A stretch of DNA of 64,000 bases, taken from positions 1,290 to 65,289 of the forward strand of contig CALRHC010000002.1 of the NCBI GenBank assembly GCA_943359335.1. The letters run 5' to 3'. The stretch's first letter is position 1; each line of letters begins with the position of its first letter. The notes under the pieces are model-generated. The model saw only the letters and a program-made list of their open reading frames with translations, was not told the origin of the DNA and did no database searches. Of the stretch, positions 1-58,972 are shown piece by piece. Made by a program: the position numbers and the translations under genes. This DNA comes from Candidatus Yanofskybacteria bacterium. Its GTDB lineage: Bacteria; Patescibacteriota; Minisyncoccia; JACQLN01.

Positions 1-111
1 CAAAGGCAGGTGAAGTGGCGGAAGTCGCCGAAAGCGACCAAGTTGGCAGATTTAGCCGCCTACAACATTTTTATAAAATATCTTTGGCGGCCGCACATGA
101 CTCAAAATAAA

Positions 112-348
112 ATGGTGTTTGTCTATGTAATAAAAAGCAAAAATAAAAATTTCAGATATGTTGGCATTACCAACAACATAAGCGAAAGACTAGATAGACA
201 TAATACTGGTAGAAATGTATCGACAAAAAACCATAAACCCTTTGTACTGATCCGCTCGGAACAATATAATGACTATAAGAAAGCAAGAATTAGAGAAAAA
301 TTTTTAAAAAGCGGAGTTGGAAGAAATTTTTTAGATAGTTTACAATAA
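112..348 (+). CDS. GIY-YIG nuclease family small protein (frame is open upstream to window edge; conserved domain starts at Met-112)
   Basis: MVFVYVIKS..FRYVGITNNISERLDRHN matches GIY-YIG motif; ORF track 10..348. Confidence 0.6.
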   Translation: MVFVYVIKSKNKNFRYVGITNNISERLDRHNTGRNVSTKNHKPFVLIRSEQYNDYKKARIREKFLKSGVGRNFLDSLQ

Positions 349-6974: not shown

Positions 6975-7625
6975 TTATTTAATCTGTATAGTTTTTAGAA
7001 TGTTTAAAAAATTTTCTTTATTAGTTGGATTTATTCTAACAATTCTAGCATTGTCTGTTGTTAGATCAATTATGGTCGATGGATCTGATTCTGGCAAAAC
7101 TCCATTATCTATAAATAGATCAGGTTGAATATCTTCTCTACTAAATCTTTCGATAATTTCTCTAGAATCTAACGAGGAAATTTCACCCGAAATATTAGCC
7201 GAAGTTGCTATAACGGGTCCTTCAAAATCTTTTATTAAACTTTGGCAAAAATAATTATCTGGCATTCTTAGAGCAATTGAATTTCTACCAGCGGTAAGCA
7301 AAAAAGAAATGCTGGGCTTTTTCTTTAATATAAAAGTAAATGGACCCGGCCAAAAACTTTTTAATATTTTTTCTCTAGACTTATCTATAACCGCCATGGC
7401 TTTCGCCATACTTATAGAATTAACTATAACCGGCAGAGGTTTTTTCTCTGGGCGTTTTTTAATAGCGAAAATTTTTCTTATAGCATCGTTATCAAAGACA
7501 TTAGCTCCCATACCATAAAGAGTGTCTGTAGGATAAATTATTACCCGCCCTTTTAACAAAGCTAACGCGGCTTCTTTTGAGGCTAACTCCGGAGAGAAAT
7601 TATTACGAATATCTAGTATCTTCAT
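6975..7625 (-). CDS. tsaC: L-threonylcarbamoyladenylate synthase (YrdC/Sua5 family)
   Basis: YPTDTLYGMGANVFD motif, 216 aa. Confidence 0.85.
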   Translation of the reverse strand: MKILDIRNNFSPELASKEAALALLKGRVIIYPTDTLYGMGANVFDNDAIRKIFAIKKRPEKKPLPVIVNSISMAKAMAVIDKSREKILKSFWPGPFTFILKKKPSISFLLTAGRNSIALRMPDNYFCQSLIKDFEGPVIATSANISGEISSLDSREIIERFSREDIQPDLFIDNGVLPESDPSTIIDLTTDNARIVRINPTNKENFLNILKTIQIK

Positions 7626-7669: not shown

Positions 7670-7769
7670 AATTCGCATTGGTTTGAGCGATTTCAAGGAG
7701 GTTCAATTTAAATATAAAGAGGGAGAATGTAAGTACCCCTCCTTGCAGGAGCGAAAACTGATGCGAATT
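7670..7769. repeat. intergenic repeat family F1 copy 1: conserved approx 65-nt core (GAGCGATTTCAAGGAGG...CCTCCTTGCAGGAGCGAAAA) closed by site-specific stem AATTCGCAT/ATGCGAATT
   Basis: 3 near-identical cores in window (also 11132-11216, 31345-31432); internal CAAGGAGG/CCTCCTTG hairpin; lies immediately 3' of leuS. Confidence 0.65.
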
Positions 7770-7772
7770 AAT

Positions 7773-10097
7773 TTAAACAATAAAATTTATAAACTTATCC
7801 TTAACAAATATAACTTTCTTTACTGGCGAAGTAAGATATTTAGAAATATTTTCGTTATTTTTAGCAGCTTCTTCAACATCTTTTTGCAAAGAGTCCACTG
7901 GCATTTTAATAACCGCGCGCATCTTAGCGTTTACTTGCACCACTATATCTACTTCTTTATCTTTAACCAGTTTAGAATCAAACTTTGGCCAAGGCGTTAT
8001 ATGAATAGATTTTTTATTCTTTAAAATTTCTCTAAATATCTCCTCGCTCATATGAGGCGCAAAAGGAGCCATGAGTTTAGCCAAAACTTCTAGTTCGTTT
8101 TTACCAACAGATTCCATATTAGCTTCAAATTCATTTAACAAAACCATCAAAGCCGAAACCGAAGTGTTATAACTCAAATTTTCTAAATCCTCTGTTACTT
8201 TTTTAATAGTCTTATTTAGAACTATTTGTAACTTAGGATTATCGTTTTGAGATTTGAGATTTAAAGTTTGAGATAAATTCCACACTCTATCTAAAAATCT
8301 GGTTATTCCTTTTATTCCACCGTCTCTAAAATCACCACCTTGATCAAACGGACCCAGAAACATTAAATACATTCTTAAAACATCAGCGCCATAATTTTTA
8401 ATGTATTCGTCGGGGTTAATAACATTACCCTTGGATTTAGACATTTTTGCGCCATCTTTTATCAATAATCCATGGGCACGGAATTTTTTAAATGGCTCGT
8501 CAAAATTGGTTAAACGTAAATCTTTAAATACCATCGCTAAAAATCGAACGTATAAAAGATGCAAAACAGAATGTTCTGCTCCGCCAATATACATATCTAC
8601 CGGAAACCATTTCTTAGTTACAGCTTGATCCCAAGCATATTTTTTATCTTTAACCGAAGCATAGCGCAAGTAATACCAAGCCGAATCTAAAAATGTATCG
8701 GAAACATCGGTTTCTCTTCTAGCTACTCCTTCGCATTTAGGACATTTAACTTTAAAAAACTTTTCGTCGGCCGCTAAAGGTGATTCGCTTGTACCGGTTG
8801 GTCTAAAGTTTTTTATGTAAGGTAACCTAACTGGTAAATCTTTTTCTGGCACCGGCTGCCAACCACATTTCTCACAATGAATCATTGGAATAGGTGCACC
8901 CCAATAACGTTGGCGAGAAACTAACCAATCCCGCAATCTAAATTGTGTTGTTTTTTTGCCCACACTCTTTTTTATCCCCTCCTCAATTGAAACGAGCGGC
9001 GCACCGCTTATCGCTAATTTAAATTTATTAGCGAATTCTAAATCGCGTTCATCGTGCGCTGGCACTCCCATAACTGCGCCTGTGCCATAACCTGCTAAAA
9101 CATAATCCGAAATCCAAACTGGAACCTTTTCGTTATTAGCTGGATTAATTGCAGAAATACCAGAAAAAATTCCGGATTTATCCTTATCTTGATTTTGATC
9201 GCGAGTAACTCTATCGGAAAGAGCTTTAGTAATATATTCTTTTACTTCTTCCGAAACTTGCCAACCAATATCTAACCAAAACTTTGCTTTCTCGGGCGAA
9301 ATTGCAATAAAGGTTACACCGAAAATTGTATCTGGGCGCGTGGTAAAAACTTCTACAAAATGTTTACCATCTTTTTGCCCTGTAACATCTGTTAAACGAA
9401 ATTTAATAGAAGCACCTTCCGATTTACCTATCCAATTTTTTTGAGCAATTTTTACTTTTTCACTCCAATCGATTTTATCTAAACCCTTTAAAAGCTTATC
9501 GGCATATTTAGTTATTCTAAAAAACCACTGCTCTAGTTCTTTTTTAATAACTTTTGTACCACATCTTTCACATTCACCACTTATAACCTGTTCGTCGGCT
9601 AAAACAGTTAAACAAGAAGGACACCAATTAACCGCAGATTTTTTGCGGTAAGCCAAACCTTTTTTATAAAGCTGTATAAAAATCCATTGTGTCCATTTGT
9701 AATATTCTGGGTCGTAAGTTTCTAATTTCTCATTCCAAGCAAAACCATTACCTATCATTTGTAGTTGGCGGTAAAAATTTTTCTCGGAAACTCTAGCTTG
9801 ATCCATTGGATGCTCGCCAATTTTTAAAGCATAGTTTTCGGAATGTATCCCAAAACCATCAAGCCCAATGGGCTCAAAAACATTAAAACCTTGCATTCTC
9901 TTAAAGCGACCATGAATATCACTCCCCACAAAAGCGTACATATTACCCACGTGCAATCCTTCGGCCGAAGGATACGGAAACATCATTAGGTTATAGAACG
10001 GATTTTTGGCATTTTTTAGATCTGGTTCATAAACCTTCTCAGCCAGCCATTTCTTATGCCACTTAGATTCTACTTTTTTATGATTATATTTGGCCAT
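7773..10097 (-). CDS. leuS: leucyl-tRNA synthetase
   Basis: 774 aa, HVGN(HIGH-type) and KMSKS motifs, C-terminal ...KVIFV..INFIV. Confidence 0.95.
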   Translation of the reverse strand: MAKYNHKKVESKWHKKWLAEKVYEPDLKNAKNPFYNLMMFPYPSAEGLHVGNMYAFVGSDIHGRFKRMQGFNVFEPIGLDGFGIHSENYALKIGEHPMDQARVSEKNFYRQLQMIGNGFAWNEKLETYDPEYYKWTQWIFIQLYKKGLAYRKKSAVNWCPSCLTVLADEQVISGECERCGTKVIKKELEQWFFRITKYADKLLKGLDKIDWSEKVKIAQKNWIGKSEGASIKFRLTDVTGQKDGKHFVEVFTTRPDTIFGVTFIAISPEKAKFWLDIGWQVSEEVKEYITKALSDRVTRDQNQDKDKSGIFSGISAINPANNEKVPVWISDYVLAGYGTGAVMGVPAHDERDLEFANKFKLAISGAPLVSIEEGIKKSVGKKTTQFRLRDWLVSRQRYWGAPIPMIHCEKCGWQPVPEKDLPVRLPYIKNFRPTGTSESPLAADEKFFKVKCPKCEGVARRETDVSDTFLDSAWYYLRYASVKDKKYAWDQAVTKKWFPVDMYIGGAEHSVLHLLYVRFLAMVFKDLRLTNFDEPFKKFRAHGLLIKDGAKMSKSKGNVINPDEYIKNYGADVLRMYLMFLGPFDQGGDFRDGGIKGITRFLDRVWNLSQTLNLKSQNDNPKLQIVLNKTIKKVTEDLENLSYNTSVSALMVLLNEFEANMESVGKNELEVLAKLMAPFAPHMSEEIFREILKNKKSIHITPWPKFDSKLVKDKEVDIVVQVNAKMRAVIKMPVDSLQKDVEEAAKNNENISKYLTSPVKKVIFVKDKFINFIV

Positions 10098-10166: not shown

Positions 10167-10997
10167 TTAGATACCAAAAACCGAACGAGCGTTTTCTATG
10201 GTGTGATGAGAAACTTCTTCGAAATCAATATTTTTTATTTCACCAATTTTTTTAGCCACCTCCGCCACATACACAGGCTCGTTACGCTGACCGCGAAATG
10301 GCGCTGGAGTTACATAAGGAGCATCAGTTTCTAAAAGCAAACGGTTAATAGGAACAGTTTTTATAATTTCGTCGTAATCGCGAGTAAAAGTTACTACACC
10401 ACCAAATGTAAAATAAAAACCCATATCTAAAAGCATGGTCGCTTGTTTCAAGTCACCACTAAAAAAATGTATTATACCCGGAACAGTTTGTAATTTATGC
10501 CGATTATCCCTTAAAACATTTAACAAATCGTCGAAAGCTTTGCGACAGTGAATCATTAAAGGTTTTTTAACCTCATATGCTAATTCTATTTGTTCTATGA
10601 AAACTTTCTCCTGTTTTTTTCTATATTCTGCCGAATGATAATAATCTAAGCCGCACTCACCTATAGCCACAACTTTTGGATTAAGTGCCAATTTTTTATA
10701 TTCTTCGTAATCAAAAACCTCACCCTTACTGGTAAATTCCGTTCCTCCTTCACCAAGCTCAGCTTTGTCATGAAAAGATTTATCGGTATGGACCGGATGT
10801 AAACCAACAGTTGCATAAACACCTTGCGAATACTTTTCGGCAAGTTTAATTGCTTCAAGAGAAGTGTCTTTTTGTGTACCAACATTTACCATCCAGATTC
10901 CAGCATCTAAAGATCTTTTTATAACTTCATCTCTATCGTCTTTATAGGCTACAAATTGAACGTGGGTATGGGCGTCGATTAATTTTGGATTATTCAT
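10167..10997 (-). CDS. tatD: TatD family metal-dependent DNase/hydrolase
   Basis: IDAHTH..., GECGLDY, ETDAPY motifs. Confidence 0.9.
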   Translation of the reverse strand: MNNPKLIDAHTHVQFVAYKDDRDEVIKRSLDAGIWMVNVGTQKDTSLEAIKLAEKYSQGVYATVGLHPVHTDKSFHDKAELGEGGTEFTSKGEVFDYEEYKKLALNPKVVAIGECGLDYYHSAEYRKKQEKVFIEQIELAYEVKKPLMIHCRKAFDDLLNVLRDNRHKLQTVPGIIHFFSGDLKQATMLLDMGFYFTFGGVVTFTRDYDEIIKTVPINRLLLETDAPYVTPAPFRGQRNEPVYVAEVAKKIGEIKNIDFEEVSHHTIENARSVFGI

Positions 10998-11017
10998 TAA
11001 TTTAAACTTATTAAAAC

Positions 11018-11110
11018 ATCTCTCCTAACAGCGATATATGAAGTTTGCCTAAGCAAGGTTCATCGTCAACTGACTTAGGTTTTCTCCATAAATGCTGTTG
11101 GGAGAGATGT
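11018..11110. repeat. repeat family F2 copy: palindromic element (GCGATATATGAAGTTTGCCTAAGCAAGGTTCATCGTC) nested inside outer inverted repeat CATCTCTCCTAACA/TGTTGGGAGAGATG
   Basis: RC is approx 85% identical to the 38-nt perfect palindrome at 20014-20051. Confidence 0.5.
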
Positions 11111-11131
11111 TAGGAAAAAACTTACCCTAAT

Positions 11132-11216
11132 ATCATTTTGAGCGATTTCAAGGAGGTTCGATTTAATATAAAGAGGGAGGATGTAAGTGCTCCTCCTTGC
11201 AGGAGCGAAAAATGAT
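11132..11216. repeat. repeat family F1 copy 2 (core plus site-specific closing stem AATATCATTTT/AAAATGATATT), immediately 3' of metG
   Basis: core approx 95% identical to copy 1 with 1-nt indel (excludes coding). Confidence 0.65.
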
Positions 11217-11228
11217 ATTAAAAAACAA

Positions 11229-12692
11229 TTAACTCAACCTAGGAAACAAATTATCACCCTTCTTAAAATTAATAGATGACTCGGAAAACCAAATTTGTTT
11301 TCTAATCTTTTCGCCTGCTTCTGGTAAAAATGGTTCAACTAAGTTTAGAATAACACCAAGTAAATAACCAGAGTTAGTCATTATTTTTTTAAATTGTTCT
11401 TCGTCTTTAACTTCCCAAGGTTTTTTGTCATTAATATATTTATCGGCAAAAGAAATTAAACCCCAAACATTAATTAAGGCTTCGTGTAGTTTAATTTCGC
11501 TTAAAGAAGATTCGTATTCTTTATAAAAATCATTGCAAACTTTTTTAACCTCGGGTTCTATATCTATAGAAAAATCAAATTTTACTGGGCTAATTTTTTC
11601 GCCTAATGTAACTGTACGGGCTACTAAGTTACCCAAACCATTGGCTAAATCGGCGGAATATCTATCTTCAAACTTTCTCAAACTAAAATCTCCATCATCA
11701 TAAGAAGGGATTTCTCGTAAAAGATAATAACGCAACGCATCCGTTCCATATTTTTTAGCAAGCGACACAGGGTCTACAATATTACCCAAACTTTTAGACA
11801 TCTTTTGTCCTTCAACCGAAATAAAACCATGAACAAAAATAGATTTTGGTAATGGCAAACCAGCCGACAAAAGTATACCCGGCCAAATAGCGGCGTGAAA
11901 ACGTAGAATATCCTTGCCTATCACTTGGAGATCGGCTGGCCAAAGTTTTTTAAATTGTTCAGTTTCATTTCCGTAACCAACAGCTGTAATATAGTTAGCC
12001 AAAGCATCGCACCAAACATACATAACTTGTTGTGCATCATTTGGTACTGGAATACCCCAAGGCAAATCTTTTTTGGGTCTAGAGAAACTAATATCTTCCA
12101 AACCAGATTCTATAAAAGATAAAATTTCATTTTTGCGCGATTCTGGAATTATTCTTAATTCATCATTCCTAATTCTTAATTCTATTTCTTTTTGGTATTT
12201 TGAAAGTTTAAAAAACCAGTTTTCTTGCTCCACTGTTTCTGGTTCTTTTTGGTGATCTAGGCATTTACCATCTATTAAATCTTTTTCTGTTTTAAAAGAT
12301 TCACAACCAACACAATAAAGTCCATTATATTTTTTCTTATAAATATCGCCCGAATCCAAAAGTTTCTGCCACAGCTTTTGAACACCTGGCCAATGATTTT
12401 TTTGATCAGTTGTTCTAATAAAACCATCCCAAGAAAGATTTAAAACATCTTTTAACTGTTTAAAATATTCTGCGTTTTCATTTACAAAATCCTGCACATC
12501 TTTATTCTCTCTTTCGGCTGCACGAAAAATCTTAACACCGTGTTCGTCGGTACCTGTTAAAAAGAAAACATCGTCACCTTTTATTCTGTGATAACGTGCC
12601 AAAACATCCGCTTGAATCTTTTCTAAAGCGTGTCCAATATGTGGTTTACCATTAACATAATCAATGGCTGTTGTAATATAAAACTTGTTCAT
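11229..12692 (-). CDS. metG: methionyl-tRNA synthetase (short form)
   Basis: HIGH (PHIGH) and KMSKS motifs, 487 aa. Confidence 0.95.
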   Translation of the reverse strand: MNKFYITTAIDYVNGKPHIGHALEKIQADVLARYHRIKGDDVFFLTGTDEHGVKIFRAAERENKDVQDFVNENAEYFKQLKDVLNLSWDGFIRTTDQKNHWPGVQKLWQKLLDSGDIYKKKYNGLYCVGCESFKTEKDLIDGKCLDHQKEPETVEQENWFFKLSKYQKEIELRIRNDELRIIPESRKNEILSFIESGLEDISFSRPKKDLPWGIPVPNDAQQVMYVWCDALANYITAVGYGNETEQFKKLWPADLQVIGKDILRFHAAIWPGILLSAGLPLPKSIFVHGFISVEGQKMSKSLGNIVDPVSLAKKYGTDALRYYLLREIPSYDDGDFSLRKFEDRYSADLANGLGNLVARTVTLGEKISPVKFDFSIDIEPEVKKVCNDFYKEYESSLSEIKLHEALINVWGLISFADKYINDKKPWEVKDEEQFKKIMTNSGYLLGVILNLVEPFLPEAGEKIRKQIWFSESSINFKKGDNLFPRLS

Positions 12693-19377: not shown

Positions 19378-19929
19378 TTATATCAGCTTGTCTAAATTAA
19401 CCCCAAAATTATTTAAAAACATATCTTTTATCCTTGTTCTAAGTATAGCGGAATCTGCTAGTTTAAAATCTGGTGCTCTAGGGTTTAAACCGTTGGAATC
19501 TAAGATATGGTAACACCACAAATAAGCCGACTCTTTTAAACCTTCTCGGGTGGCATATTTATTATTTAAAATAGAAAAAAAATCTGCAGTTTGTTGCCAA
19601 ATTTTTTCTTCACCCATGCCTGGTTCAAAAATCCTAAATATAATTTGTGTGGCAAAATGTGCCAACTTTAAACGATATAAATCACTTTTTAAAACCAAAT
19701 GAGAATCTTTAATTTTAAAATCTGTAATTATTGGTATATGTTTTGACGGCACAAAAAAAACTTCGGTATGATTAAACATATCTAAACCATGCCGAAGTTT
19801 GCCACTATGTTTGCGTACACTTTTTGCCTGCAATTCCATTAAGCCAAATTCTTTGGTATAAAGCGTAAAAACAGCGTCCGCTTCGCGACGTGGCGAATTT
19901 TTTAAAATAATACCTTCTATAGATTTCAT
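19378..19929 (-). CDS. recO: DNA repair protein RecO (short)
   Basis: N-terminal OB-fold pattern GIILK..GE.D.....T...G......AK..RK. Confidence 0.7.
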   Translation of the reverse strand: MKSIEGIILKNSPRREADAVFTLYTKEFGLMELQAKSVRKHSGKLRHGLDMFNHTEVFFVPSKHIPIITDFKIKDSHLVLKSDLYRLKLAHFATQIIFRIFEPGMGEEKIWQQTADFFSILNNKYATREGLKESAYLWCYHILDSNGLNPRAPDFKLADSAILRTRIKDMFLNNFGVNLDKLI

Positions 19930-20013
19930 AAACGCTAAAAGTATAACAAATTAGCGCGTAAGACACAGCATCATTCCGAGTAGCATTATGGAGAAGACTA
20001 TCTAAAATCAATT

Positions 20014-20051
20014 GACGATAAACCTTGCTTAAGCAAGGTTTATATATCGTC
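20014..20051. promoter_or_regulatory. 38-nt near-perfect palindrome GACGATAAACCTTGC-TTAA-GCAAGGTTTATATATCGTC in divergent recO/glycosyltransferase promoter region (repeat family F2)
   Basis: perfect dyad; second diverged copy at 11031-11067. Confidence 0.5.
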
Positions 20052-20104
20052 TACGAGGAATAACGTTGTCTATAAAAACATATTTTGCGCTACACTATAT
20101 AAAA

Positions 20105-22611: not shown

Positions 22612-22884
22612 CTAATCTCGGCCGTGTCCTCTGTTCCAAACAAAAGCGAAAACAAAGCCAACTACATAACCCATCAAAGCTGTAAACACTATAAGTTTAA
22701 CAGCTCGTGTGGCTATAAACGGAGAAACAACAAAAGGATTATTTAAAAAATGAATTCTGTAAATCATATCAAGCATTTTTTGCCCCAAACCCATAAAAAC
22801 CATAAGCGACCACATTGCATGCATCAAACCCACAAATAAACTTACAGTTAGAGCTGTTCTATTTTTATTTAATTTAACTGCCAT
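22612..22884 (-). CDS. small hypothetical membrane protein
   Basis: 90 aa, 3 TM. Confidence 0.4.
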   Translation of the reverse strand: MAVKLNKNRTALTVSLFVGLMHAMWSLMVFMGLGQKMLDMIYRIHFLNNPFVVSPFIATRAVKLIVFTALMGYVVGFVFAFVWNRGHGRD

Positions 22885-23015
22885 ATTTTTCTATGAATGA
22901 AATGAATAGTTAAAAATATGTGTCCGCCGTAGCTTTGCTTGATTCTTTATCAGTACCTGATAAATACGGGCGAAGGCGGGCCATACTCCTAAATATCTAT
23001 TTATTTAACGACCTT

Positions 23016-24939: not shown

Positions 24940-27900
24940 TTAAACCCTTTTGATTCCTACTCCAATCTCAAAACCTTCGTAATTCCAAACTTTGTGAACC
25001 AAGAAACTTTCGGTTTCGGTTATGCCAAAGTGAATTTGGGTAGAACGAGTTTCTTGTTTAATTACATCCTCCCAACGGGCTAATAATTCTTTAAAACCAG
25101 TGTTTTGGTTTAGTTCGTAATACAAAATTATTTTATCTTCGGGTGTTAACTTCGCTTCTTTTCTCATTTCGTTAATATTCCTAATCATCTCGCGCACCAT
25201 ACCTTCTTCTTTAAGTTCCGCCGTAAGCACAGTATCCAAACTAACACTATTTTTTTCTATTTTTCTATCGCTTAAAACTTTTTTAACATTAAGTTCTTCG
25301 GCCACAATGTATAAAACATCACCAATTAAATTGTAATCGGCTGGCGAAACATACAACGCATTAAGTGGCTGGCGTACGCGCAAACCTGCTTGAGCGCGTT
25401 CAGCAAGGCCCAATGCCACAATTTCGCGAGCTCTTTCCATAGCTTTCATAACATCGGAAGCTTTAACTGCTTTTGTATTTGGCCAAGGCTCTAAGTGAAC
25501 AGATTCTCTGTATCCAGCAACTTGAGTTAGATCTTTTAAGCTTTGGTGTAACCATTCCGATATAAACGGTGCGAATGGCGCCATTATAATTGCGGTGCGT
25601 TTTAAAACTTCGGTTAAAGTATTTTGAGCCGATAATTTTTCGGCATCTATATTTTGTTTTTGAAATTTGCGGCGGCTACGGCGAATATACCAATTAGAAA
25701 GTTCGTCTATAAATTCTTCTATGGCACGCGAAGCGGAAGTTATATCGTACGAATCTAAAAATTTATTTACATCAAATTCCAATTTTTCTAAACGCATTAA
25801 AACCCATTTATCTAGAATATCTGTTTTAGCCGCCAAAGATTTTGGAGGCACAACAAAATATGTTTCTAAAAACAAAAACGAATTAATTAGAGTATCGGCA
25901 AACCTGCGCTTTTTACTTTCTATATCGCGCATACTAAAAAGTTTATTATCGCCCGGCGCGTTTACAGTGTAAAAGTACCAACGCATCATGTCGAAACCAA
26001 CTTTCTCGCCTACCATCCATGGGTCTACAATATTCCCCTTCGATTTAGACATCTTTTCGCCTTTTTCATCTAATACATGGTTTAAACTAATTACATTTTT
26101 GTATGGCGCGCCTTCGCCCAAGGCTGTGCTAACCGCCATTAAGGTGTAGAACCAACCACGGGTTTGGTCGATAGCTTCGCAAATGTAATCTGCTGGAAAT
26201 TTGTCCTTACCCAAGTTTTGAGATTTAAGTTTTGAGATTTGAGATCCATGTTGGGCCCACGGCATCGCGCCCGAATCAAACCAAACATCGGCTAAGTCTT
26301 TTATACGTTCCATCTTTGAGGAACACATAGAACACTTGAGGAACACATTGTCTGCGTACGGGCGATGCAGGTTTAAATTCCCTTCTTCGTCGCGTGGCCA
26401 GTTATTTGTTTCTACAAAAGCAAATTCGGCAGGATCCAATGCTAACTTAGTGTTCTTAATTACGTTTCTATATAAAAGCGCTTCGTCTTCACCATAAATT
26501 CCGTTAGATAACAAAAGCAAAAATAGGGGATCCATATGGCTTACCACTGCAATTTTTTTACCCGCATGTTTTTTGGAAACTTCCACCATAAATTCACGAA
26601 CTCTTTTAGATACATCTAGCCACGATTCGCCTTCTGGTGGGCGGCGCATAAACCTTTCTTTATAGGAATTAAAATAGTTTTTATATTCAATCGCCGGCCC
26701 GCCGTTAAATTCGCCAGTATTAAGTTCGCGTAAACGTTCGTCGAAAATAACTTCTTTTATTTTTAATTCGTCGGCTAAAATTTGCGCAGTTTCGCGAGTG
26801 CGTAATAAATCGGAAGCATAAATTGCTACCACCTTTTCTTTATCTAATTGTTTTTTAATTTTCTTAGCGGATTCTTCTGCCTGCTTCCTACCTTTTTCGG
26901 TTAAAGGGTTTAAAAACTTTTCTGGGTAACAACTACACAAATTTTTTACATTAGATTCTGCCTCGCCGTGACGCATTAAAACCAAAGTAGCTGGGGTATC
27001 TGGGCGGTGTTGGTTAAGTTCTTCTAAAGAACCGATTACGGTTTTGTGTTCGCATTTGGTGCATTCCCAAATTGGCAGTGGCGTACCCCAATACCTTTCA
27101 CGGCTTATGGCCCAGTCCTTAACTTCGCGTAACCATTCGCCAAACCTACCTTCTTTAATGTGTTCGGGTACCCAATTAACTTTTTCGTTATTTTTAATTA
27201 AATCGCCACGTAACGCCGACATTTTTATAAACCAACTTTCTTGTGCGTAATATAGTAACGGCGATTTACAACGCCAACAGAATGGATATTCGTGTTTGTA
27301 GCTAGCTTCGCTAAATAACAAATTTTTTGTTTTTAAATAAAACAAAATTGTTTTTTCGGTTATAGGGTCTTTTTTGTTTTCGCTAACAATAGCAAGACCG
27401 CCTACCACTGGAACAGATTTTATAAAAACTCCTTCGCGATTAACCGTGTGGAATTTTGGCAAATTTAATTTGGTACCAAGTTCAAAATCGTCGGCGCCAT
27501 ACATTACTGCGGTATGCACAATCCCCGTGCCGTCTTCTGTGGTTACAAAATCGGCTTCGTAAACTTTGTAAGAATTTTCACTTTCTAATTCTTTAACTGC
27601 AAATAAAGCCTCGTAAGAAAGTTTGGTAAGATCACCCGCTTTTAATTCTTTATTTATTTTATATTCGTGTCCTGCTAAAACTTTCTCGGCCAAGTCTTTG
27701 GCTAAAATATATTTCTCACCGTTAACTTCGGCCTCTACATAAACAACTTTTGGCCCTACTGCCAAAGCAACATTACCTGGTAAAGTCCATGGCGTGGTAG
27801 TCCACGCTAATAAGTATGTATTTTCTAGTTCTTTAACTTTAAATTTTATAGTTACCGATCTATCTGTAACTGTTTCGTAACCTTGCGCCACTTCGTGGCT

Positions 27901-28455
27901 AGAAATCGGCGTACCGCAACGCACACAAAACGGAACGATTTTATAATCTTTAACTAAAAGTTTTTTATCGTAAATTCTTTTTAAAATATTCCAAACATTT
28001 TCTATGTATTGAGGTTCGTAGGTTATGTATGGATTTTTTAAGTCTAACCAGTAACCCATGCGGCGTGTCATTTTTTCCCATTCGTCTTTATATTGCCAAA
28101 CAGATTCTTGGCAATCTTTGTTGAATTTAGCAATGCCGTATTTTTCTACATCGCGTTTGTTTTTTAACCCAAGTTTTTTCTCTACTTCTATTTCTACCGG
28201 TAAACCATGAGTATCCCAACCTGCGCGACGTTGAACAAACCGTCCTTTCATGGTTTGAAAACGGCAAATAATATCTTTAAACGAACGCGCCACGATATGA
28301 TGAATACCTGGCTTGCCGTTAGCCGTAGGCGGGCCTTCGTAAAATACAAAAGGCTTACCATCTTTAGTGGCTTCTAATGTTTTTTCAAAAATCTGGTTAT
28401 CGTGCCAATGTTTTAAAACTTTTTCTTCTTCTTGAGGTAGATTTACTTGTCTCAT
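24940..28455 (-). CDS. ileS: isoleucyl-tRNA synthetase (type 2) carrying an inserted histidine phosphatase (PGAM-like) domain (approx residues 488-690)
   Basis: PPTANGKPGIHH, WTTTPWTLP editing motif, KMSKS; insert has LMRHGEAESN, DLLRTRETA, AVVSHMD. Confidence 0.93.
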   Translation of the reverse strand: MRQVNLPQEEEKVLKHWHDNQIFEKTLEATKDGKPFVFYEGPPTANGKPGIHHIVARSFKDIICRFQTMKGRFVQRRAGWDTHGLPVEIEVEKKLGLKNKRDVEKYGIAKFNKDCQESVWQYKDEWEKMTRRMGYWLDLKNPYITYEPQYIENVWNILKRIYDKKLLVKDYKIVPFCVRCGTPISSHEVAQGYETVTDRSVTIKFKVKELENTYLLAWTTTPWTLPGNVALAVGPKVVYVEAEVNGEKYILAKDLAEKVLAGHEYKINKELKAGDLTKLSYEALFAVKELESENSYKVYEADFVTTEDGTGIVHTAVMYGADDFELGTKLNLPKFHTVNREGVFIKSVPVVGGLAIVSENKKDPITEKTILFYLKTKNLLFSEASYKHEYPFCWRCKSPLLYYAQESWFIKMSALRGDLIKNNEKVNWVPEHIKEGRFGEWLREVKDWAISRERYWGTPLPIWECTKCEHKTVIGSLEELNQHRPDTPATLVLMRHGEAESNVKNLCSCYPEKFLNPLTEKGRKQAEESAKKIKKQLDKEKVVAIYASDLLRTRETAQILADELKIKEVIFDERLRELNTGEFNGGPAIEYKNYFNSYKERFMRRPPEGESWLDVSKRVREFMVEVSKKHAGKKIAVVSHMDPLFLLLLSNGIYGEDEALLYRNVIKNTKLALDPAEFAFVETNNWPRDEEGNLNLHRPYADNVFLKCSMCSSKMERIKDLADVWFDSGAMPWAQHGSQISKLKSQNLGKDKFPADYICEAIDQTRGWFYTLMAVSTALGEGAPYKNVISLNHVLDEKGEKMSKSKGNIVDPWMVGEKVGFDMMRWYFYTVNAPGDNKLFSMRDIESKKRRFADTLINSFLFLETYFVVPPKSLAAKTDILDKWVLMRLEKLEFDVNKFLDSYDITSASRAIEEFIDELSNWYIRRSRRKFQKQNIDAEKLSAQNTLTEVLKRTAIIMAPFAPFISEWLHQSLKDLTQVAGYRESVHLEPWPNTKAVKASDVMKAMERAREIVALGLAERAQAGLRVRQPLNALYVSPADYNLIGDVLYIVAEELNVKKVLSDRKIEKNSVSLDTVLTAELKEEGMVREMIRNINEMRKEAKLTPEDKIILYYELNQNTGFKELLARWEDVIKQETRSTQIHFGITETESFLVHKVWNYEGFEIGVGIKRV

Positions 28456-30702: not shown

Positions 30703-31047
30703 ATGGCACGTGTAAAAAGAGGAACAATTGCGTCTAAACGCAGAAAGAATTTATTAAAATATACCAAAGGCTTTAAGTGGTCTCGTAATACACATTACCG
30801 AGCTGCTAAAGAAGCTTTGTTGCACGCTTGGTCTAAAGCCTATCATGATCGCAAAAAGAAAAAAGGTGACTTTAGAACTTTATGGCAAGTTAAAGTTGGC
30901 GCTGCCGCTAAACAAAATGGTATTTCTTACAGCCGTTTTATAAACGCTTTAAAGAAAGCCAATGTTGAGCTAGATAGAAAAATATTAGCCGACCTCGCCG
31001 AAAACAATCCAGAAGTATTTGCTAAGATTGTAGAAAAAGTTAAATAA
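30703..31047 (+). CDS. rplT: 50S ribosomal protein L20
   Basis: MARVKRGTIASKRRK... Confidence 0.95.
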   Translation: MARVKRGTIASKRRKNLLKYTKGFKWSRNTHYRAAKEALLHAWSKAYHDRKKKKGDFRTLWQVKVGAAAKQNGISYSRFINALKKANVELDRKILADLAENNPEVFAKIVEKVK

Positions 31048-31327
31048 AGCTTTTAGGAATAACTTTTAAACCATCCATCAAAACTCCTTCTCTCTGAAGG
31101 AGTTTTGCTTTTATAGCAATACCTCCACGGTTATAGCCGCCTAAATTGCCGTCTGATCTGACTACACGATGGCATGGAATTTTAGGATCAAAGTTTTTAG
31201 ATAACACCATAGCCACTCCTCTCGCTGCTTTGGGCGAGCCAATAGCTATAGCAACTTTTTTATATGTTGCTACTTTTCCTTTTGGAATTTTTTTAGTAAA
31301 TTCGTAAACTTTTTCTCTAAATATCAT
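31040..31327 (-). CDS. ogt: methylated-DNA-protein-cysteine methyltransferase DNA-binding/active-site domain protein
   Basis: PCHRVV active-site motif, 95 aa. Confidence 0.85.
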   Translation of the reverse strand: MIFREKVYEFTKKIPKGKVATYKKVAIAIGSPKAARGVAMVLSKNFDPKIPCHRVVRSDGNLGGYNRGGIAIKAKLLQREGVLMDGLKVIPKSFI

Positions 31328-31344
31328 TTCTTATTTTACCCTTG

Positions 31345-31432
31345 TTTGCTGCTGAACGATTTCAAGGAGGTTCGTTTTATTTATAAAGAGGGAGGATGTA
31401 AGTGCCCCTCCTTGCAGGAGTGAAGTAGCAAA
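31345..31432. repeat. repeat family F1 copy 3 (core plus site-specific closing stem TTTGCT.../...AGCAAA), between polX stop and ogt start
   Basis: core approx 90% identical to copies 1 and 2. Confidence 0.65.
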
Positions 31433-31445
31433 CAAAAAACATTAA

Positions 31446-33176
31446 CTATTTATTTTTTAAAAAACCTAACATTTTTTCTACCGACCAAGCGTTTATAATA
31501 TCCGCCTTAGTCGCCCATGCTCTGCGTGCCTGCGCAATACCAAGTTCTAAATATTTAAAGTGGTCGGTATGATGTGCATCAGAATCTATAGATAATTTTA
31601 CTCCTGCCTCTAGAGCCATTCTTACATGTTCATCTTTTAAATCTAACCTATCGGCAAAAGCATCTATTTCTAAAACTGTGCCAGTTCTTTTGGCGGCTTT
31701 TATAATTTCTTCAATATCTATTTCGTAAGCTGGTCGTTTATTAATAATCCTGCCAGTGGGGTGAAAAAGAATATCTACATTAGGGTTTTCCATCGCCTTA
31801 ATTATTCTTTTTGTTTGTTCGGCTTTAGTTAAATTAAATAAAGAATGCACCGCCACACCCACTACATCCAATTTAGCTAAAGTTTTATCGTCTATATCTA
31901 ACGAACCATCTTTTAAAATATTTACTTCTGCACCCTTTAAAACACGAAACTTGTAACCTGAAGCTTGAAACTTTTTATTTATTTTTTCTATCTCCGCCAT
32001 CTGCTTTTCTAGTTTCTTTTCATCCGATCCACCCGTCATCGCCAAAGATTTTGTATGGTCGGTAATTAAAATATATTCCAAACCCATTTTCATAGCAGCT
32101 TCAGCCATTTCTTCTATAGAGTTTTCGCCATCTGTCCAAGTTGTTTGAATCTGTAAATCGCCTTTTAAATCAGCGTAATTAATTAGCTTAGGAAGTTTAT
32201 TTTTACCAGCGGCCTCAACCTCCCTGTTTAAGTTCCTAAGTTCGGGTTCAATGTATTCTAAACCTAATTTGTTATATATTTCTTCTTCTGTTTTTCCTGC
32301 TATTAATTTCTCACCCTTATACAAGCCGTATTCGTTTAACTTATAGCCTTTTTCTATCGCGATTTTTCTTAATTCTACGTTGTGGTTTTTATCTCCCGTA
32401 AAATATTGCGCCGCCGCACCAAAACTTTCCGGTGCCACCACACGTAAATCTATTTCCAAACCATTATTTAGTTTAATAACACTTTTAGTTTCACCTTTAG
32501 CTACTACCCTTCCAACTTCGGGCATTTTTATAAACATATCCATAACTTCTCTGGGGTTTTTAGAAGTTATTAAAATATCTACATCGCCTATAGTTTCTTG
32601 CATTCGACGCGTCGAACCACATAATAAAACTTTATCGGCATATTTGCTTTTTTCTAAACGAGAAACAATTTCTCTAATTTCGGGTAAAACAAAACCCAAA
32701 ACATAGCGCCCACTATGTTTTTTAACAAACTCTAAACCTTTTAAAATTTTCTCTTCCGATTTTTCACCAAAACCTTCTAAATTTTTAATTAAACCCGCCT
32801 TAGCCGCCTTTTCTAACTGAGCTAAATTTTTAATGCCTAATTTTTTATATAGTTTATAAACACCTTTAGGGCCAACTCCTTCCACACTGGTTAAACCCTC
32901 TACATCTACCGGAATTTTTTTCTTTAAAGCTAAGTGCTCTTTAATTTTTTTTGTTTTAATATATTCTTCTATCATTTCCGACATGCTTTTACCCACACCC
33001 TGAATTTCTTCTAGAGCTTTGGTACCACCTCTTTTGTATATGTCTTTTAAATCTTCGCCTAAGTTTTCTATATTTACCGCCGCGCGTTCAAAAGCCTGTG
33101 GTTTAAAAGCCACCTCTTGCATAGCAAACAATATGGAAATTTCCTTGAATATTTTGGTTATCTCTTGGTTTATCAT
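31446..33176 (-). CDS. polX: DNA polymerase X family with C-terminal PHP domain
   Basis: HhH motifs, GSTRRMQETIGDVDIL Pol-beta NT motif, PHP histidines. Confidence 0.9.
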   Translation of the reverse strand: MINQEITKIFKEISILFAMQEVAFKPQAFERAAVNIENLGEDLKDIYKRGGTKALEEIQGVGKSMSEMIEEYIKTKKIKEHLALKKKIPVDVEGLTSVEGVGPKGVYKLYKKLGIKNLAQLEKAAKAGLIKNLEGFGEKSEEKILKGLEFVKKHSGRYVLGFVLPEIREIVSRLEKSKYADKVLLCGSTRRMQETIGDVDILITSKNPREVMDMFIKMPEVGRVVAKGETKSVIKLNNGLEIDLRVVAPESFGAAAQYFTGDKNHNVELRKIAIEKGYKLNEYGLYKGEKLIAGKTEEEIYNKLGLEYIEPELRNLNREVEAAGKNKLPKLINYADLKGDLQIQTTWTDGENSIEEMAEAAMKMGLEYILITDHTKSLAMTGGSDEKKLEKQMAEIEKINKKFQASGYKFRVLKGAEVNILKDGSLDIDDKTLAKLDVVGVAVHSLFNLTKAEQTKRIIKAMENPNVDILFHPTGRIINKRPAYEIDIEEIIKAAKRTGTVLEIDAFADRLDLKDEHVRMALEAGVKLSIDSDAHHTDHFKYLELGIAQARRAWATKADIINAWSVEKMLGFLKNK

Positions 33177-34077: not shown

Positions 34078-34716
34078 CTACTGTACTATCTTTCTGTGAC
34101 GTTCGGGTATGGTTCTATCTTGGTATCGTTTTTTAGGATCAAGATGGCTAAGTAAACCCAGTAATAAAAATGCCGACAAAAGAGATATTGCGCTTGCCGA
34201 AAGAAACAGTGTAACAAAACCATATTTATCGGCAACGTAACCACCAACCGCCGTTGCTACAGAAGCGGCGAGGCCGACCGAAAAAACACTATCCAAACTC
34301 CATTCAAAACTTATTCTCCATTTATCTACGTGGCGTGTAAAAATGGAATACCAAGCTGGTACCGCCCACGCCATTATAAAACCATAAAAACCCTGCACAA
34401 TGTATAAATGTACTGGCTTTGTAACAAAAATATAAGCAATAGGAATAAGTGAGCTTAAAAAATAACCCAAAAATAGTGCCCAAAAATCATCGCGTTCGCC
34501 GTCGGTTTTATCTAAAAAGCGTGCAATTGGCAATTGAAAAATAGATTTAACTATCCAGTAAATTGAGGCGGCAAAACCAGCAACTTTAGCTGAACCACCT
34601 TGTATTTGATTTGTTAAAAAAATTGCAAACACCGGACCAAAAGAAGCAAAAGCAGAATTATAAAAAAAATCTGCTGCAACAATAACTTTTATAATACGAT
34701 TTACACCTGTAAACAT
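34078..34716 (-). CDS. 6-TM MFS-half-like membrane protein
   Basis: GGYVADKYG MFS loop motif, 212 aa. Confidence 0.55.
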   Translation of the reverse strand: MFTGVNRIIKVIVAADFFYNSAFASFGPVFAIFLTNQIQGGSAKVAGFAASIYWIVKSIFQLPIARFLDKTDGERDDFWALFLGYFLSSLIPIAYIFVTKPVHLYIVQGFYGFIMAWAVPAWYSIFTRHVDKWRISFEWSLDSVFSVGLAASVATAVGGYVADKYGFVTLFLSASAISLLSAFLLLGLLSHLDPKKRYQDRTIPERHRKIVQ

Positions 34717-34763
34717 GCCAATTTTATTTATGAACGAAGTGAGTAATTATAAATATTGAGCAC
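34717..34763 (-). promoter_or_regulatory. conserved 47-nt 5' leader/promoter motif (family F3 copy A) immediately upstream of start codon; contains TATAAT
   Basis: approx 87% identical to 52916-52962 upstream of MazG-like gene. Confidence 0.5.
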
Positions 34764-44165: not shown

Positions 44166-44753
44166 TTATTTAAACAACCTAAAAGAGTTATAAATTTTAT
44201 TTAAAATATCATTATCATCTTCACTATAGAAAATAAGGATTTTACCATCGCCGAGCCAAACATACATTTCATAAACATTACCTATCATTCCTTCGAAATT
44301 TCTGCGATGCAAAATAACCATGGCCTCGCCTAGTTTTTTTACCACAAAGGTGGAATAAAATTTTTCACCAATTACATTGTTTCCACCAAGATTAAAATAT
44401 AAACTCCTTAAGTTATTTTCATATTCGGCTAAGGATTTAAATTTAACATCTTGATAATATGCCTTGATTCCAGAAGCTTCATAATATCCATCCTTTTTAA
44501 AAAAACCAACAATCGCCACACCATCAGGATTTTCTTCTGCGCTATAATATTCCGGATATTTTATCTCAAACCCATACTTTTCATTTCTATAAGTTTTCCA
44601 ATTCGCGGTTTCGTCTGCGACTTTTTGATTTGCATTTGAATTTTCCGCTGGAGCATAAGCTGGTTTTTTAGAGAGATAAAAATACCCGCCACCGAGTAGT
44701 AAAATTCCTAGTGCGATGATAACAACATCTTTTATAAATCCTTTTTGGTTCAT
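44166..44753 (-). CDS. secreted/anchored protein, paralog A (shares N-terminal approx 70 aa with 45310..45819)
   Basis: MNQKGFIKDVVIIALGILLLGGGYFY... approx 80% nt identity over first 200 nt with paralog B. Confidence 0.55.
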   Translation of the reverse strand: MNQKGFIKDVVIIALGILLLGGGYFYLSKKPAYAPAENSNANQKVADETANWKTYRNEKYGFEIKYPEYYSAEENPDGVAIVGFFKKDGYYEASGIKAYYQDVKFKSLAEYENNLRSLYFNLGGNNVIGEKFYSTFVVKKLGEAMVILHRRNFEGMIGNVYEMYVWLGDGKILIFYSEDDNDILNKIYNSFRLFK

Positions 44754-44981: not shown

Positions 44982-45233
44982 CTAGAAAGACATTGTATAT
45001 AAACTTAATTCTTTAGAACGATAGGCTTTAAGCAAATCTTTATTTCCTTTGTCTTCTATAATTAGCTCAATAACTTCGCGTATGTTTTTTAAAGCCTCGT
45101 TTTTTGTTTTACCTTGACTGTAACATCCTTCAAAAACAGGACATTCCACCACATAAAAACCGTCCTCGTCTTTTTCTACAAGCAAGGGCAGTTTAGAGCC
45201 TAATCGTTTGGTTTTAGTACTAACCTTTGACAT
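44982..45233 (-). CDS. hicB: HicB-like antitoxin (UPF0150)
   Basis: DGFYVVECPVFEGCYSQGKTKNEALKNIREVIELII. Confidence 0.75.
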   Translation of the reverse strand: MSKVSTKTKRLGSKLPLLVEKDEDGFYVVECPVFEGCYSQGKTKNEALKNIREVIELIIEDKGNKDLLKAYRSKELSLYTMSF

Positions 45234-45309: not shown

Positions 45310-45819
45310 TTATTTTGTGAATTTGAAGGTTGATAAAACCTTGTTACAAAAATCCAAAATATCTAATCCACCATAATCTACACAATTGGCATAAACTTTC
45401 CGATTATCTTTATAAAAATAAATTGGATTCTCGCCGTCTATATTATTATTTTTAGTAAATAAAACAGTTTTCACTGATACGATTTGATATCTACTATCCG
45501 CCACATTACTTATCGTTAATCTTGCTGGCTCGTAACCTCCCGCCAATAAATCATAACTCACATCTACCTGAAAATCGGCGGCATTTTGAAAAAAAGACTG
45601 ATCAATAACGTCTGAACTTTTTGGGTATCTGAATTCAATTTCATATTTTTCATTTCTATAAGTCTTCCAATCTTTAGTTTCATCGGCAATTTGATTTTGA
45701 TTCGTATTTTCCGCTGGAGCATAGGCTGGGTTTTTGGAAAAATAAAAATACCCACCGCCTAGCAGTAGAATCGCTAGTACAATAATGACAATGTCTTTAA
45801 TAAAACCTTTTTGGTTCAT
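45310..45819 (-). CDS. secreted/anchored protein, paralog B
   Basis: MNQKGFIKDIVIIVLAILLLGGGYFY... Confidence 0.55.
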   Translation of the reverse strand: MNQKGFIKDIVIIVLAILLLGGGYFYFSKNPAYAPAENTNQNQIADETKDWKTYRNEKYEIEFRYPKSSDVIDQSFFQNAADFQVDVSYDLLAGGYEPARLTISNVADSRYQIVSVKTVLFTKNNNIDGENPIYFYKDNRKVYANCVDYGGLDILDFCNKVLSTFKFTK

Positions 45820-52585: not shown

Positions 52586-52915
52586 TTATCTATTGTCTCC
52601 GCTACCGTGAATTTTATCTTTTTTAAACCTAGACGATAATTTTTCTATGTTTGCTTTTGCAATATCTTCTAGAGAAAATTTTAGCTCACCTGCCATTTGC
52701 GATATGTACCACAAAACATCGCCTAGTTCTTTTTTTATATCCTCCCTCTTTTCTTTGGTAATAATACCTTTATCATCTCTTAAAATTTTCTTTACCTTGT
52801 TAGCAACTTCTCCGGCTTCACCCACCAAACCCAGCGTTGGGTAAATAATATTTTTTCCAATATTAGGATAAGCTGCAGTTTTCTTAGCTTTATTTTGATA
52901 TTCTTTAAAATCCAT
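52586..52915 (-). CDS. MazG-like nucleotide pyrophosphohydrolase (ATG at 52915; track uses upstream TTG 52945)
   Basis: GEAGEVANKVKK...LGDVLWYISQMA MazG EExxE/D motifs. Confidence 0.75.
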   Translation of the reverse strand: MDFKEYQNKAKKTAAYPNIGKNIIYPTLGLVGEAGEVANKVKKILRDDKGIITKEKREDIKKELGDVLWYISQMAGELKFSLEDIAKANIEKLSSRFKKDKIHGSGDNR

Positions 52916-52962
52916 GCCAATTTTATTTGCGAACAAAGTGAGCAATTATTAAAATTGAGCAC
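52916..52962 (-). promoter_or_regulatory. conserved 47-nt 5' leader/promoter motif (family F3 copy B)
   Basis: approx 87% identical to 34717-34763. Confidence 0.5.
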
Positions 52963-56896: not shown

Positions 56897-57025
56897 AACG
56901 CACCTCCATCGTATATGTTTTAGCGTTTTTTAACTTTTTATATACTACATAAAAGTAATATCTTTGTCAAATAGATAGTTTACTTGATAAAATGTTTGTA
57001 TATGCCCAGTAACACTACTTCAAAC

Positions 57026-58966: not shown

Positions 58967-58972
58967 AAATAT

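Follow-up and report, generated by a model that had tools for sequence, protein, structure and literature searches.

A folded repeat element between tatD and metG in a Candidatus Yanofskybacteria genome: a candidate interspersed unit within a head-to-head hairpin doublet

In a stretch of 64,000 nucleotides from a Candidatus Yanofskybacteria bacterium (contig CALRHC010000002.1; hereafter the window), the spacer between the genes tatD and metG contains a hairpin of a repeat family that we call F1, and it is this hairpin, F1 copy 2, that is described here. On balance, we regard F1 copy 2 as a resident copy of an interspersed hairpin element whose folded sequence is copied as one unit, in the manner of the REP/BIME/REPIN or ERIC elements of other bacteria. 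The unit would measure ~95 nt and consist of a closing stem (P1), a GAGCGA/GAGCGA box, a helix (P2), and a 35-nt loop with a conserved G-tract. At this site, it is paired head to head with a hairpin of a second type (F2) on the opposite strand in a 212-nt doublet, and the doublet appears to have been installed recently in the window lineage, in a spacer that holds a hairpin in every relative examined. Across related genomes, it is the entire hairpin, including P1, that operon spacers gain, replace, and lose, and that decays there. The elements sit wedged between the ends of genes, and their cores are near-identical while their P1 arms change with compensation.

The tatD-metG spacer (10998-11228, 231 nt) separates two minus-strand genes that were identified with Pfam: tatD (10167-10997; PF01026, E = 1.4e-80), which lies downstream on that strand, and metG (11229-12692; PF09334, E = 3.1e-107), which lies upstream. 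The spacer holds two long hairpins, and F2 and F1 together account for 190 of its 231 bases, in agreement with an earlier note on this DNA that had described it as almost entirely repeat. The complete F1 copy 2 occupies 11128-11220 on the plus strand (114.6 bits with the covariance model R1), slightly more than the 11132-11216 at which it was first noticed. Its 93 nt fold at -28 kcal/mol (z = -4.25), and none of 200 shuffled sequences folded as well. The closing stem had been put at 11 bp and AT-rich; the composition holds, with one C-G pair and the remainder A-T, and the length is 12 bp, TAATATCATTTT (11128-11139) pairing with AAAATGATATTA (11209-11220), the end of which is 8 nt from the metG stop codon (11229-11231). 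Inside P1, the 5' GAGCGA box (11140-11145) is the partner of the 3' GAGCGA box (11203-11208), such that the central GC of the one pairs with the GC of the other and the flanking GA faces GA. A short segment, UUUC/GCAG, lies between the boxes and P2, in which the Shine-Dalgarno (SD)-like 5' arm CAAGGAGG (11149-11156) pairs with the anti-SD-like 3' arm CCTCCTTG (11192-11199); the P2 helix of the unit can also be given as CAAGGAGG/CCUCCUUG. The terminal loop (11157-11191, 35 nt) has an A/U-rich, variable 5' part that is followed by the conserved G-tract AAAGAGGGAGGATGTAAG (11170-11187), placed by the alignments at the loop end.

In alignments of the copies, no supported pairing was found inside the 35-nt loop. 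A helix between the loop G-tract and CCUCCUU was considered and rejected, as it shows no covariation and a G to A change in F1 copy 1 is uncompensated. In some of the homologous sequences collected for comparison (designated by L numbers), G+C-rich mini-hairpins of 30-40 nt are nested at fixed places of the loop of F1 or of F1b, a form of the F2 family (L015/L017/L020, L013:9150, L021:4767, and L023:2274-2413). Those in the F1 loops of L015/L017/L020 and L013:9150 sit on the 3' side of the loop and are optional.

The second hairpin, F2, was first recorded as a nested inverted repeat at 11018-11110, and its full extent proved to be 11015-11111. It is a 97-nt nested hairpin (-46 kcal/mol, z = -8.1) that scores 64.3 bits on the minus strand with R2, a covariance model built from F2-type elements, and has no match on the plus strand. 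The architecture of the window copy is [P1]-AGCAUU-UAUGGAG...CUUCAUA-UAUCGCU-[P1'], and the plan that F2/F1b elements share in relatives (alignment A4) is [P1]-GARC-AGCA-UYAYGGAG...CUCCRUR-UCGYCU-GYGA-[P1']; compensatory changes are found in 12 of the 23 predicted pairs of this family. The nested inner hairpin of F2 is made by an insert in its loop (11045-11069; TTGACGATGAACCTTGCTTAGGCAA on the minus strand), which other family members lack and which is also present in the second F2-type copy of the window, at 19958-20079 on the plus strand (R2, 59.2 bits). The latter copy shares the loop segment TTGACGATRAACCTTGCTTARGCAA with F2, is degenerate on its 3' side, including the 3' P2 arm, and lies in a divergent spacer between a recO-like gene (19378-19929, minus strand) and a PMT-family glycosyltransferase gene (plus strand; both by Pfam). 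The spacer had been thought to combine two different repeat families. Two families are indeed present, but they are not unrelated: R2 also picks up all F1 copies, with scores of 25-44 bits and in the same orientation, and F1 and F2/F1b are, judged by their sequences, sister families.

F2 and F1 lie in opposite orientations with their 5' ends facing, and the linker AGGAAAAAACTTACCC (11112-11127) separates the two 5' ends. The adjacency of the two hairpins reported earlier is thus correct, and the reported gap of 20 nt, which applies approximately to the narrower coordinates, is 16 nt between the full stems. This linker is kept in the doublet of L003, and CTTACCC is also found 5' of F1 in copy 3 of the window, in L002, and in L003. 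Together, F2, linker, and F1 constitute one homology block of 212 nt (11014-11225) that is ~96% identical, outside the F2 centre, to the doublet of L003 (metagenome-assembled genome [MAG] JBBTRR01), where this block is flanked by dprA and topA (Pfam). The homology between the two stops exactly at the doublet borders, and the flanks are unrelated. Between dprA and topA of L001, there is a head-to-head doublet of a canonical F1 and an F1 variant, which brings the head-to-head doublets found to three (window, L003, and L001). By its geometry, a head-to-head pair reads in the same order from either side, the element on the side of the upstream stop being antisense and the element on the side of the downstream start being sense.

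To compare the spacer among relatives, syntenic loci were reached through TatD homologues, and ten relatives were compared. All ten carry one hairpin of ~90-110 nt in the tatD-metG spacer, and these hairpins are of at least five kinds. Where the window has the F2 + F1 doublet, L023, L027, and L026 have a single F1b element, L025 has an F1b without G.A boxes, L029 and L030 (the same as L013 and L021) have a canonical F1, L028 has an unrelated 'CGAAT' hairpin (F3), and L031 has another hairpin with a G+C-rich centre. The three relatives nearest to the window by nucleotide identity, L025 (87-90%), L023 (79-96%), and L026 (77-87%), each have a single F1b; since the doublet is missing from them, it is recent and derived in the window lineage.

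Neighbouring spacers vary in the same way. The AI-2E/metG spacer is 25 nt long in the window and L025, and it contains a 149-nt F1b in L023 and a 100-nt F3 in L026. No P1-like palindrome is found at the empty AI-2E/metG site, and P1 is seen only with an element, which indicates that P1 comes with the element. We therefore rejected a target-derived origin of P1, in which the core would have entered an existing hairpin; the doublet of L003, which bears the same P1 in a different context, counters this origin as well. The tsaC/SHMT spacer measures 1 nt in the window and holds a full F1 in L026 and a 50-nt 3' remnant in L023. The remnant (L023 8442-8491) consists only of the F1 3' half, CCTCCTTGTAGGAGCGA plus the P1 3' arm, and looks like a decay intermediate. 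In the leuS/tsaC spacer, the window and L017 have F1, L023 has F1b, and L026 has F3, and the two genes overlap in L013. A conserved spacer with no signs of insertion, which would have spoken against the hotspot of insertion proposed earlier, was not seen among the ten relatives. Instead, the spacer content differs from one to another, and the neighbouring spacers provide empty sites and a remnant, all of which supports a hotspot, with the qualification that transposition and recombination with gene conversion are both compatible with this turnover.

Two further observations concern the same loci. The F3 elements ('CGAAT', unrelated long hairpins; L026 7449-7556 and 2322-2421, L028 2411-2500) fill spacers that are occupied by F1/F1b in other relatives. 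At L026 7449-7556, F3 forms a far more stable fold on the strand antisense to the genes (-40.7 vs -24.9 kcal/mol for the sense strand); for the F3 copy of L028, the sense strand gives the better fold (antisense vs sense, -25.4 vs -31.6). In addition, tatD (window 10189-10991) is 95.8% identical to L023 at the DNA level and leuS, metG, and tsaC are 79-82% identical, a mosaic that suggests recent homologous exchange among related populations.

The window contains exactly three F1 copies, all on the plus strand. Besides copy 2, these are copy 1 (7670-7769; R1, 117.9 bits), between tsaC/Sua5 (6975-7625, minus strand) and leuS (7773-10097, minus strand), with an orthologous copy in L017, and copy 3 (31342-31435; R1, 110.3 bits), between an MGMT-like gene (31040-31327, minus strand) and polX (31446-33176, minus strand), with an orthologous copy in L018. 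Their 70-nt cores are 89-93% identical, and their closing stems of 12-15 bp differ in sequence and keep their complementarity. In the two orthologous pairs (copy 1 with L017 and copy 3 with L018), both members are found at the same locus in the same orientation, and their P1 arms are related. The flanking proteins at these sites are only 60-79% identical, so that these copies are old, and the differences within each pair are either compensatory or pass through G.U on the element strand. Among copies in general, the cores are 86-100% identical and the P1 arms match at 2 of 13 to 13 of 13 positions. Between copies of the same MAG, the cores are 97-100% identical and the P1 arms match at 2 of 13 (L005a/b) or 9-10 of 13 positions (L008b/L011). 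Near-identical cores together with differing P1 arms point to core copying or gene conversion between copies as the probable process, not to slow divergence in place.

Covariance model searches with R1, of the kind that the earlier note had called for, found the three window copies and recovered 28 confident F1 copies overall. About 30 copies beyond the window come from Parcubacteria, Patescibacteria, and Minisyncoccia MAGs and from groundwater metagenomes, with L014-L029 originating from the Hainich groundwater wells. Exact-pattern scans of public collections found the F1 core only in Parcubacteria, Patescibacteria, Minisyncoccia, and Niyogibacteria MAGs and groundwater metagenomes; one further pattern match, L010 (labelled Pelobacteraceae), appears to be a different sequence. 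The F1 family is limited to one Parcubacteria/Patescibacteria clade. A 32-nt pattern of the core has an expectation of 0.00 chance matches. A strict 20-base pattern gave 1-6 matches per GTDB MAG, and the density in the window is 3 F1 and 2 F2 copies per 64 kb. A phage origin was rejected, as no matches were found in viral contigs. A known RNA family was rejected as well: with Rfam 15, only tmRNA and one tRNA reached the gathering score in the whole window, an E-value threshold of ≤0.05 added nothing at F1 or F2, and at E ≤ 10 the region 10990-11240 gave only sub-threshold generic hairpins (10-21 bits vs gathering scores of 34-178), mostly microRNA-precursor and other long-hairpin models. We found no description of F1 in the literature on repeats and structured RNAs of the candidate phyla radiation (CPR) and Parcubacteria. 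Two side observations belong here: 6 of the 22 GGAGG words on the plus strand of the window fall within the three F1 copies, and spurious open reading frames (ORFs), such as 7683-8024, overlap the elements.

The predicted structure is supported by covariation in two alignments: A2, with 15 F1 copies aligned by MAFFT and no structure guidance, and A5, with 28 F1 copies from Parcubacteria/Patescibacteria MAGs fitted to the model. In A2, 97.6% of the pair cells are paired, a share that drops to 47-52% with the partners slid, and both sides have changed in 14 of 25 pairs; none of 500 shuffles attained the observed values. The corresponding figures for A5 are 97.7% vs 43-56% and 16 of 25 pairs; none of 500 shuffles attained the observed values on four measures, and 1 of 500 did so on the fifth. 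All unpaired cells of A2 fall in the two outermost P1 columns or in two internal-loop pairs, with none in the other 11 P1 pairs. Across the F1 family, every one of the 13 P1 pairs has compensatory changes, the sequence of this stem being free and always paired. P2 covaries in divergent members (CAGGGAGG/CCUCCCUG, CACGGAG/CUCCGUG, and CAUGGAG/CUCCAUG). The G-C pair of the GAGCGA box becomes A-U in 4 of 28 copies (GAACGA...GAGTGA), and L001:6836 has Watson-Crick pairs, UU/AA, in place of the outer GA/GA. This swap for U-A pairs in one variant fits tandem G.A pairs, which the facing GA dinucleotides would form, stacked in a continuous helix.

The non-Watson-Crick cells are distributed asymmetrically, with 36 G.U vs 11 A.C on the F1 strand, where A.C corresponds to G.U on the opposite strand; the A.C cells lie mostly in the outermost stem columns. 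The plus strand is C-rich in the window (GC skew of -0.04 to -0.20; 35% GC in the genome), and for most of the other spacers in the window the minus strand gives the better fold. Since the G.U excess runs counter both to the C-rich plus strand and to the minus-folding spacers, the F1-sense strand appears to be under selection for folding, either as RNA or as single-stranded DNA. Deamination bias on a G-rich leading and coding strand predicts an asymmetry opposite to the G.U excess. Mutational bias as the source of the G.T excess was therefore rejected, as its direction would be wrong and the other spacers fold better on the minus strand. An IS200/IS605-like action on the single-stranded DNA of the lagging-strand template is also unlikely because the folding strand is the C-rich strand, which in the window would be the leading-strand template.

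The elements take up nearly all of their spacers and mostly leave 0-25 nt to the adjoining genes. Where both flanking genes run in one direction, 27 elements lie antisense to them, compared with 8 in sense; for independent singletons, with orthologous sites de-duplicated by hand, the counts are roughly 19-20 antisense vs 5 sense. No gene class is shared by their neighbours, which include aminoacyl-tRNA synthetases, polX, MGMT, topA, dprA, mfd, fructose-bisphosphate aldolase, and LytR. Neither the constant sense orientation nor the functionally related flanking genes of a cis-regulatory leader or riboswitch were found, and we are somewhat inclined to see F1 copy 2 as being, in its working principle, a non-autonomous structured repeat and not a cis-regulator of tatD or metG. 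For such a repeat, the folded top strand of the element, whether RNA or single-stranded DNA, would be the target of selection irrespective of the direction of the host genes. Sense insertions in operons would be counter-selected due to the stronger sense fold in the mRNAs, resulting in the antisense excess. Copying would proceed either (i) via a factor encoded elsewhere or (ii) through recombination and gene conversion between copies.

Several known systems offer a comparison. BIMEs alternate two types of palindromic units in opposite orientations. REP/REPIN elements of Proteobacteria are associated with RAYT transposases (PMC3116915, PMC3337134). F1 resembles REP/BIME/REPIN elements in being an imperfect palindrome in extragenic operon spacers, present in several copies and in either orientation, in its vertical persistence with gain and loss, and in that the fold of one strand matters; inverted pairs act as a unit in both, and the F2 + F1 doublet parallels the REPIN doublet. 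However, REPs are 20-40 nt long with a conserved stem and occur tens to hundreds of times per genome, whereas F1 is ~95 nt long with a free stem and a conserved core and is seen in few copies. The halves of the doublet described here also come from two distinct families, and neither folds onto the other. The cognate RAYT (Y1/HUH) gene of REP/REPIN systems lies in the genome, usually with the repeats on either side of it; no such gene was found among the 68 window ORFs scanned against Pfam. F1 lacks the short palindrome and conserved stem of a REP and has in common with the REPIN the inverted doublet that behaves as a unit.

The ERIC or IRU elements of Enterobacteria are imperfect palindromes of ~100-130 nt that occur in transcribed intergenic regions at low copy number. 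They share with F1 both orientations, low copy number, cross-species conservation, presence or absence at orthologous sites, and variants with internal insertions; in contrast, the outer arms of ERIC are conserved in sequence and those of F1 are not. Homology to ERIC was rejected, as R1 scores a real ERIC copy of E. coli (L032) at 2.9 bits (E = 2.2). Two short words, GTAAGTG and GAGCGAA, do recur in identical order in the F1 core and this ERIC copy (L032 201-244), near the 3' side of the central helix, which is probably a coincidence.

Miniature inverted-repeat transposable elements (MITEs; Correia/NEMIS, RUP, and BOX) have fixed-sequence terminal inverted repeats, target-site duplications, and a cognate insertion sequence transposase. 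Like F1, they are small non-coding repeats between genes and can form hairpins as RNA. In the flanks of 36 copies, there are neither conserved termini, except for CTTACCC / AAAAAAC in one clade, nor direct repeats, and the alignment of empty with filled sites shows no target-site duplication. The attC sites of integrons have a variable centre and a conserved foot (R boxes, GTTRRRY; R''/R' core sites RYYYAAC / GTTRRRY). With F1, they have in common a folded single strand that is recognised, a position just 3' of a gene, a folding strand that is usually antisense, and a free stem. The layout of F1 is nevertheless the opposite, with a variable foot and a conserved centre, its neighbours are syntenic housekeeping genes and not cassettes, and no integrase domain was found in the window. 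Finally, in TIGR stem-loop arrays, which lie beside a tas gene, the units carry conserved C and D boxes that enclose variable spacers (PMC12045711). TIGR/box C/D units and F1 both occur in CPR bacteria as hairpins with a palindromic closing stem and, beside it, tandem motifs of the G.A type. Unlike these arrays, F1 is dispersed, its loop is conserved, and it has no 3-nt kink-turn bulge. A TIGR or box C/D guide RNA was rejected because the architecture differs, and there is no Nop-domain ORF in the window. Among all of these, the design of F1 is distinctive in its free closing stem, fixed core, and own-strand-specific selection, and the family is a previously undescribed element of a broadly familiar kind.

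Not all observations fit an interspersed element that is copied as a unit, and the following weigh against it. (i) Fixed-sequence terminal inverted repeats and target-site duplications are missing. (ii) The copy number is low, at 3 per 64 kb and ≤6 exact pattern matches per GTDB MAG, and no two copies of the same genome are near-identical over their full length. (iii) When the 68 window ORFs were scanned against Pfam for partner genes, no transposase, RAYT/HUH nuclease, integrase, or reverse transcriptase was found in the 64 kb, and a partner gene within the window was rejected accordingly. (iv) Orthologous persistence at 60-79% protein identity would argue for selection in place and hence for a host- or RNA-level function. 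(v) Homologous recombination between related populations, and not transposition, could drive the turnover: tatD is 96% identical to L023 and its neighbours ~80%.

A possible alternative, to which we give limited credence, is that F1 and F2/F1b are independently transcribed small RNA genes or cis-antisense RNAs. We hold with similarly modest confidence that, in this case, the hairpin would present the single-stranded G-tract GAGGGAGG, which is strongly SD-like, to a partner. This partner might be the anti-SD end of the 16S rRNA, a C-rich mRNA site, or a protein, and gain and loss of copies would amount to turnover of paralogues. Such genes would account for the selection on the element's own strand even where it is antisense to both neighbours, for orthologous copies that keep their fold through wobble intermediates on that strand only, and for the strong conservation of the loop sequence across MAGs, and the antisense excess suits independent genes. 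An anti-SD partner does exist, given the canonical AAGGAGG-type SD at 7 of 60 genes in the window, where most start codons are preceded by A/U-rich sequence. However, neither a sigma-70-like promoter nor an intrinsic terminator (the latter on either strand) was found at copy 1 or copy 2, for which reason an own promoter or terminator of F1 was rejected, and the foot of the P1 stem is A-U rich, unlike the G+C-rich stem of an intrinsic terminator. Most copies lie 2-25 nt from genes, leaving no room for a promoter outside the coding sequence. Individual copies are also dispensable, as seen from the empty sites and the decayed remnant, and the AUG-UAA of the loop is not conserved.

A broader and still more tentative proposal, which we consider rather doubtful, is that F1/F2/F1b represent a new class of structured replicators or small RNAs in CPR bacteria, marked by own-strand selection regardless of host transcription, by homogenised cores with fast, compensated stems, and by spread without a recognisable transposase, and perhaps acting in trans as a ribosome or anti-SD decoy. 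As a decoy, the element may display its SD-like G-tract beside a helix that mimics the SD:anti-SD duplex.

It is unlikely, in our estimation, that the hairpins act on the polycistronic mRNAs of the host as intercistronic punctuation, be it as 3' stabilisers, RNase III-type sites, weak bidirectional terminators, or bridges from stop to next start, in which case the tatD-metG spacer would need a hairpin but one of any family would serve. The occurrence of a ~90-110 nt hairpin of whatever family in that spacer of 10 of 10 relatives would be expected of such a role, as would the placement of the elements 0-10 nt past the upstream stop and 5-25 nt ahead of the next start, the A-tracts and U-tracts at the P1 foot in many copies, and the fact that the reverse strand of F1 elements still folds, at -22 to -26 kcal/mol. 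What makes punctuation less likely is that the mRNA usually carries the weaker strand: the majority of elements are antisense, which leaves the mRNA with A.C and tandem U.C/C.U mismatches, and all wobble-type substitutions preserve the other strand. Moreover, the window copies have no U-tract directly after the stem and no terminator-like site, other operon spacers of 1-25 nt are free of elements, and the 70-nt sequence-conserved core would be left unexplained.

It is highly improbable that the element is a palindrome by chance, A/T-rich sequence of low complexity, or a small ORF of the protein-coding or start-stop kind, even in an A/T-rich genome (35% GC), with a loop, GGAGGAUGUAA, that reads as SD, start, and stop and an open frame through copy 2, given the 0.00 expected pattern matches, the shuffles that never fold as well, and the covariation that 0 of 500 shuffles reached in A2 (and 1 of 500 on the fifth measure in A5). 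A small peptide was rejected because copies differ by indels of 1-2 nt that throw any reading frame out of register. The start-stop mini-ORF within GGAGGAUGUAA was rejected because AUG-UAA is absent in L022, L013, L019:3498, L002:939, and L001:6836; it is replaced by AUAAA, GUGAAA, and others in several members.

The window has other features that lie apart from these elements. A family of direct repeats of ~50 nt, D3 (22877-22926, 34714-34763, and 52913-52962), overlaps three minus-strand genes (a 90-aa ORF, an MFS transporter, and a MazG-like gene) at the start codon and the region upstream of it, and may be a shared promoter or leader. Upstream of ruvB, which is on the opposite strand, the 357-nt intergenic region 58967-59323 (minus strand; -122 kcal/mol, z = -5.3) comprises a multi-hairpin domain of ~190 nt followed by a terminator-like stem and a U-tract; it has no Rfam match and may be an unannotated non-coding RNA. 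An isoleucyl-tRNA-synthetase-like protein of 1171 aa (24940-28455, minus strand) has a histidine-phosphatase domain (His_Phos_1) at residues 491-649 that splits its class I catalytic domain into two halves. Small GIY-YIG nuclease-domain ORFs are found on the minority strand at 10-348 (plus strand), immediately upstream of a tRNA (357-440), and at 56984-57286 (plus strand). Two paralogous PsbP_2-like genes (44166-44753 and 45310-45819, minus strand; repeats D2/D7, 73-82% identical) have a HicB-like antitoxin gene (44982-45233) between them.

CPR/Patescibacteria genomes are tiny and tightly packed and are thought to be poor in selfish or regulatory non-coding DNA. In the 64 kb analysed here, a conserved family of ~95-nt elements with strong covariation occupies most of the larger operon spacers; it turns over between genomes that are 80-90% identical, and its doublets resemble those of REPIN/BIME. 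For practical purposes, the R1 and R2 covariance models provide a marker for strain-level rearrangement in Parcubacteria MAGs, and they also flag spots where assemblers and gene callers may err. To our knowledge, almost nothing is known about the non-coding RNAs and repeats of CPR/Patescibacteria. If the elements are mobile, REP-like intragenomic replicators would not be restricted to the well-studied phyla and would include another design, with a free stem and a fixed core; if they are instead a family of RNA genes, they would constitute a new class of structured RNA for an uncultivated phylum.

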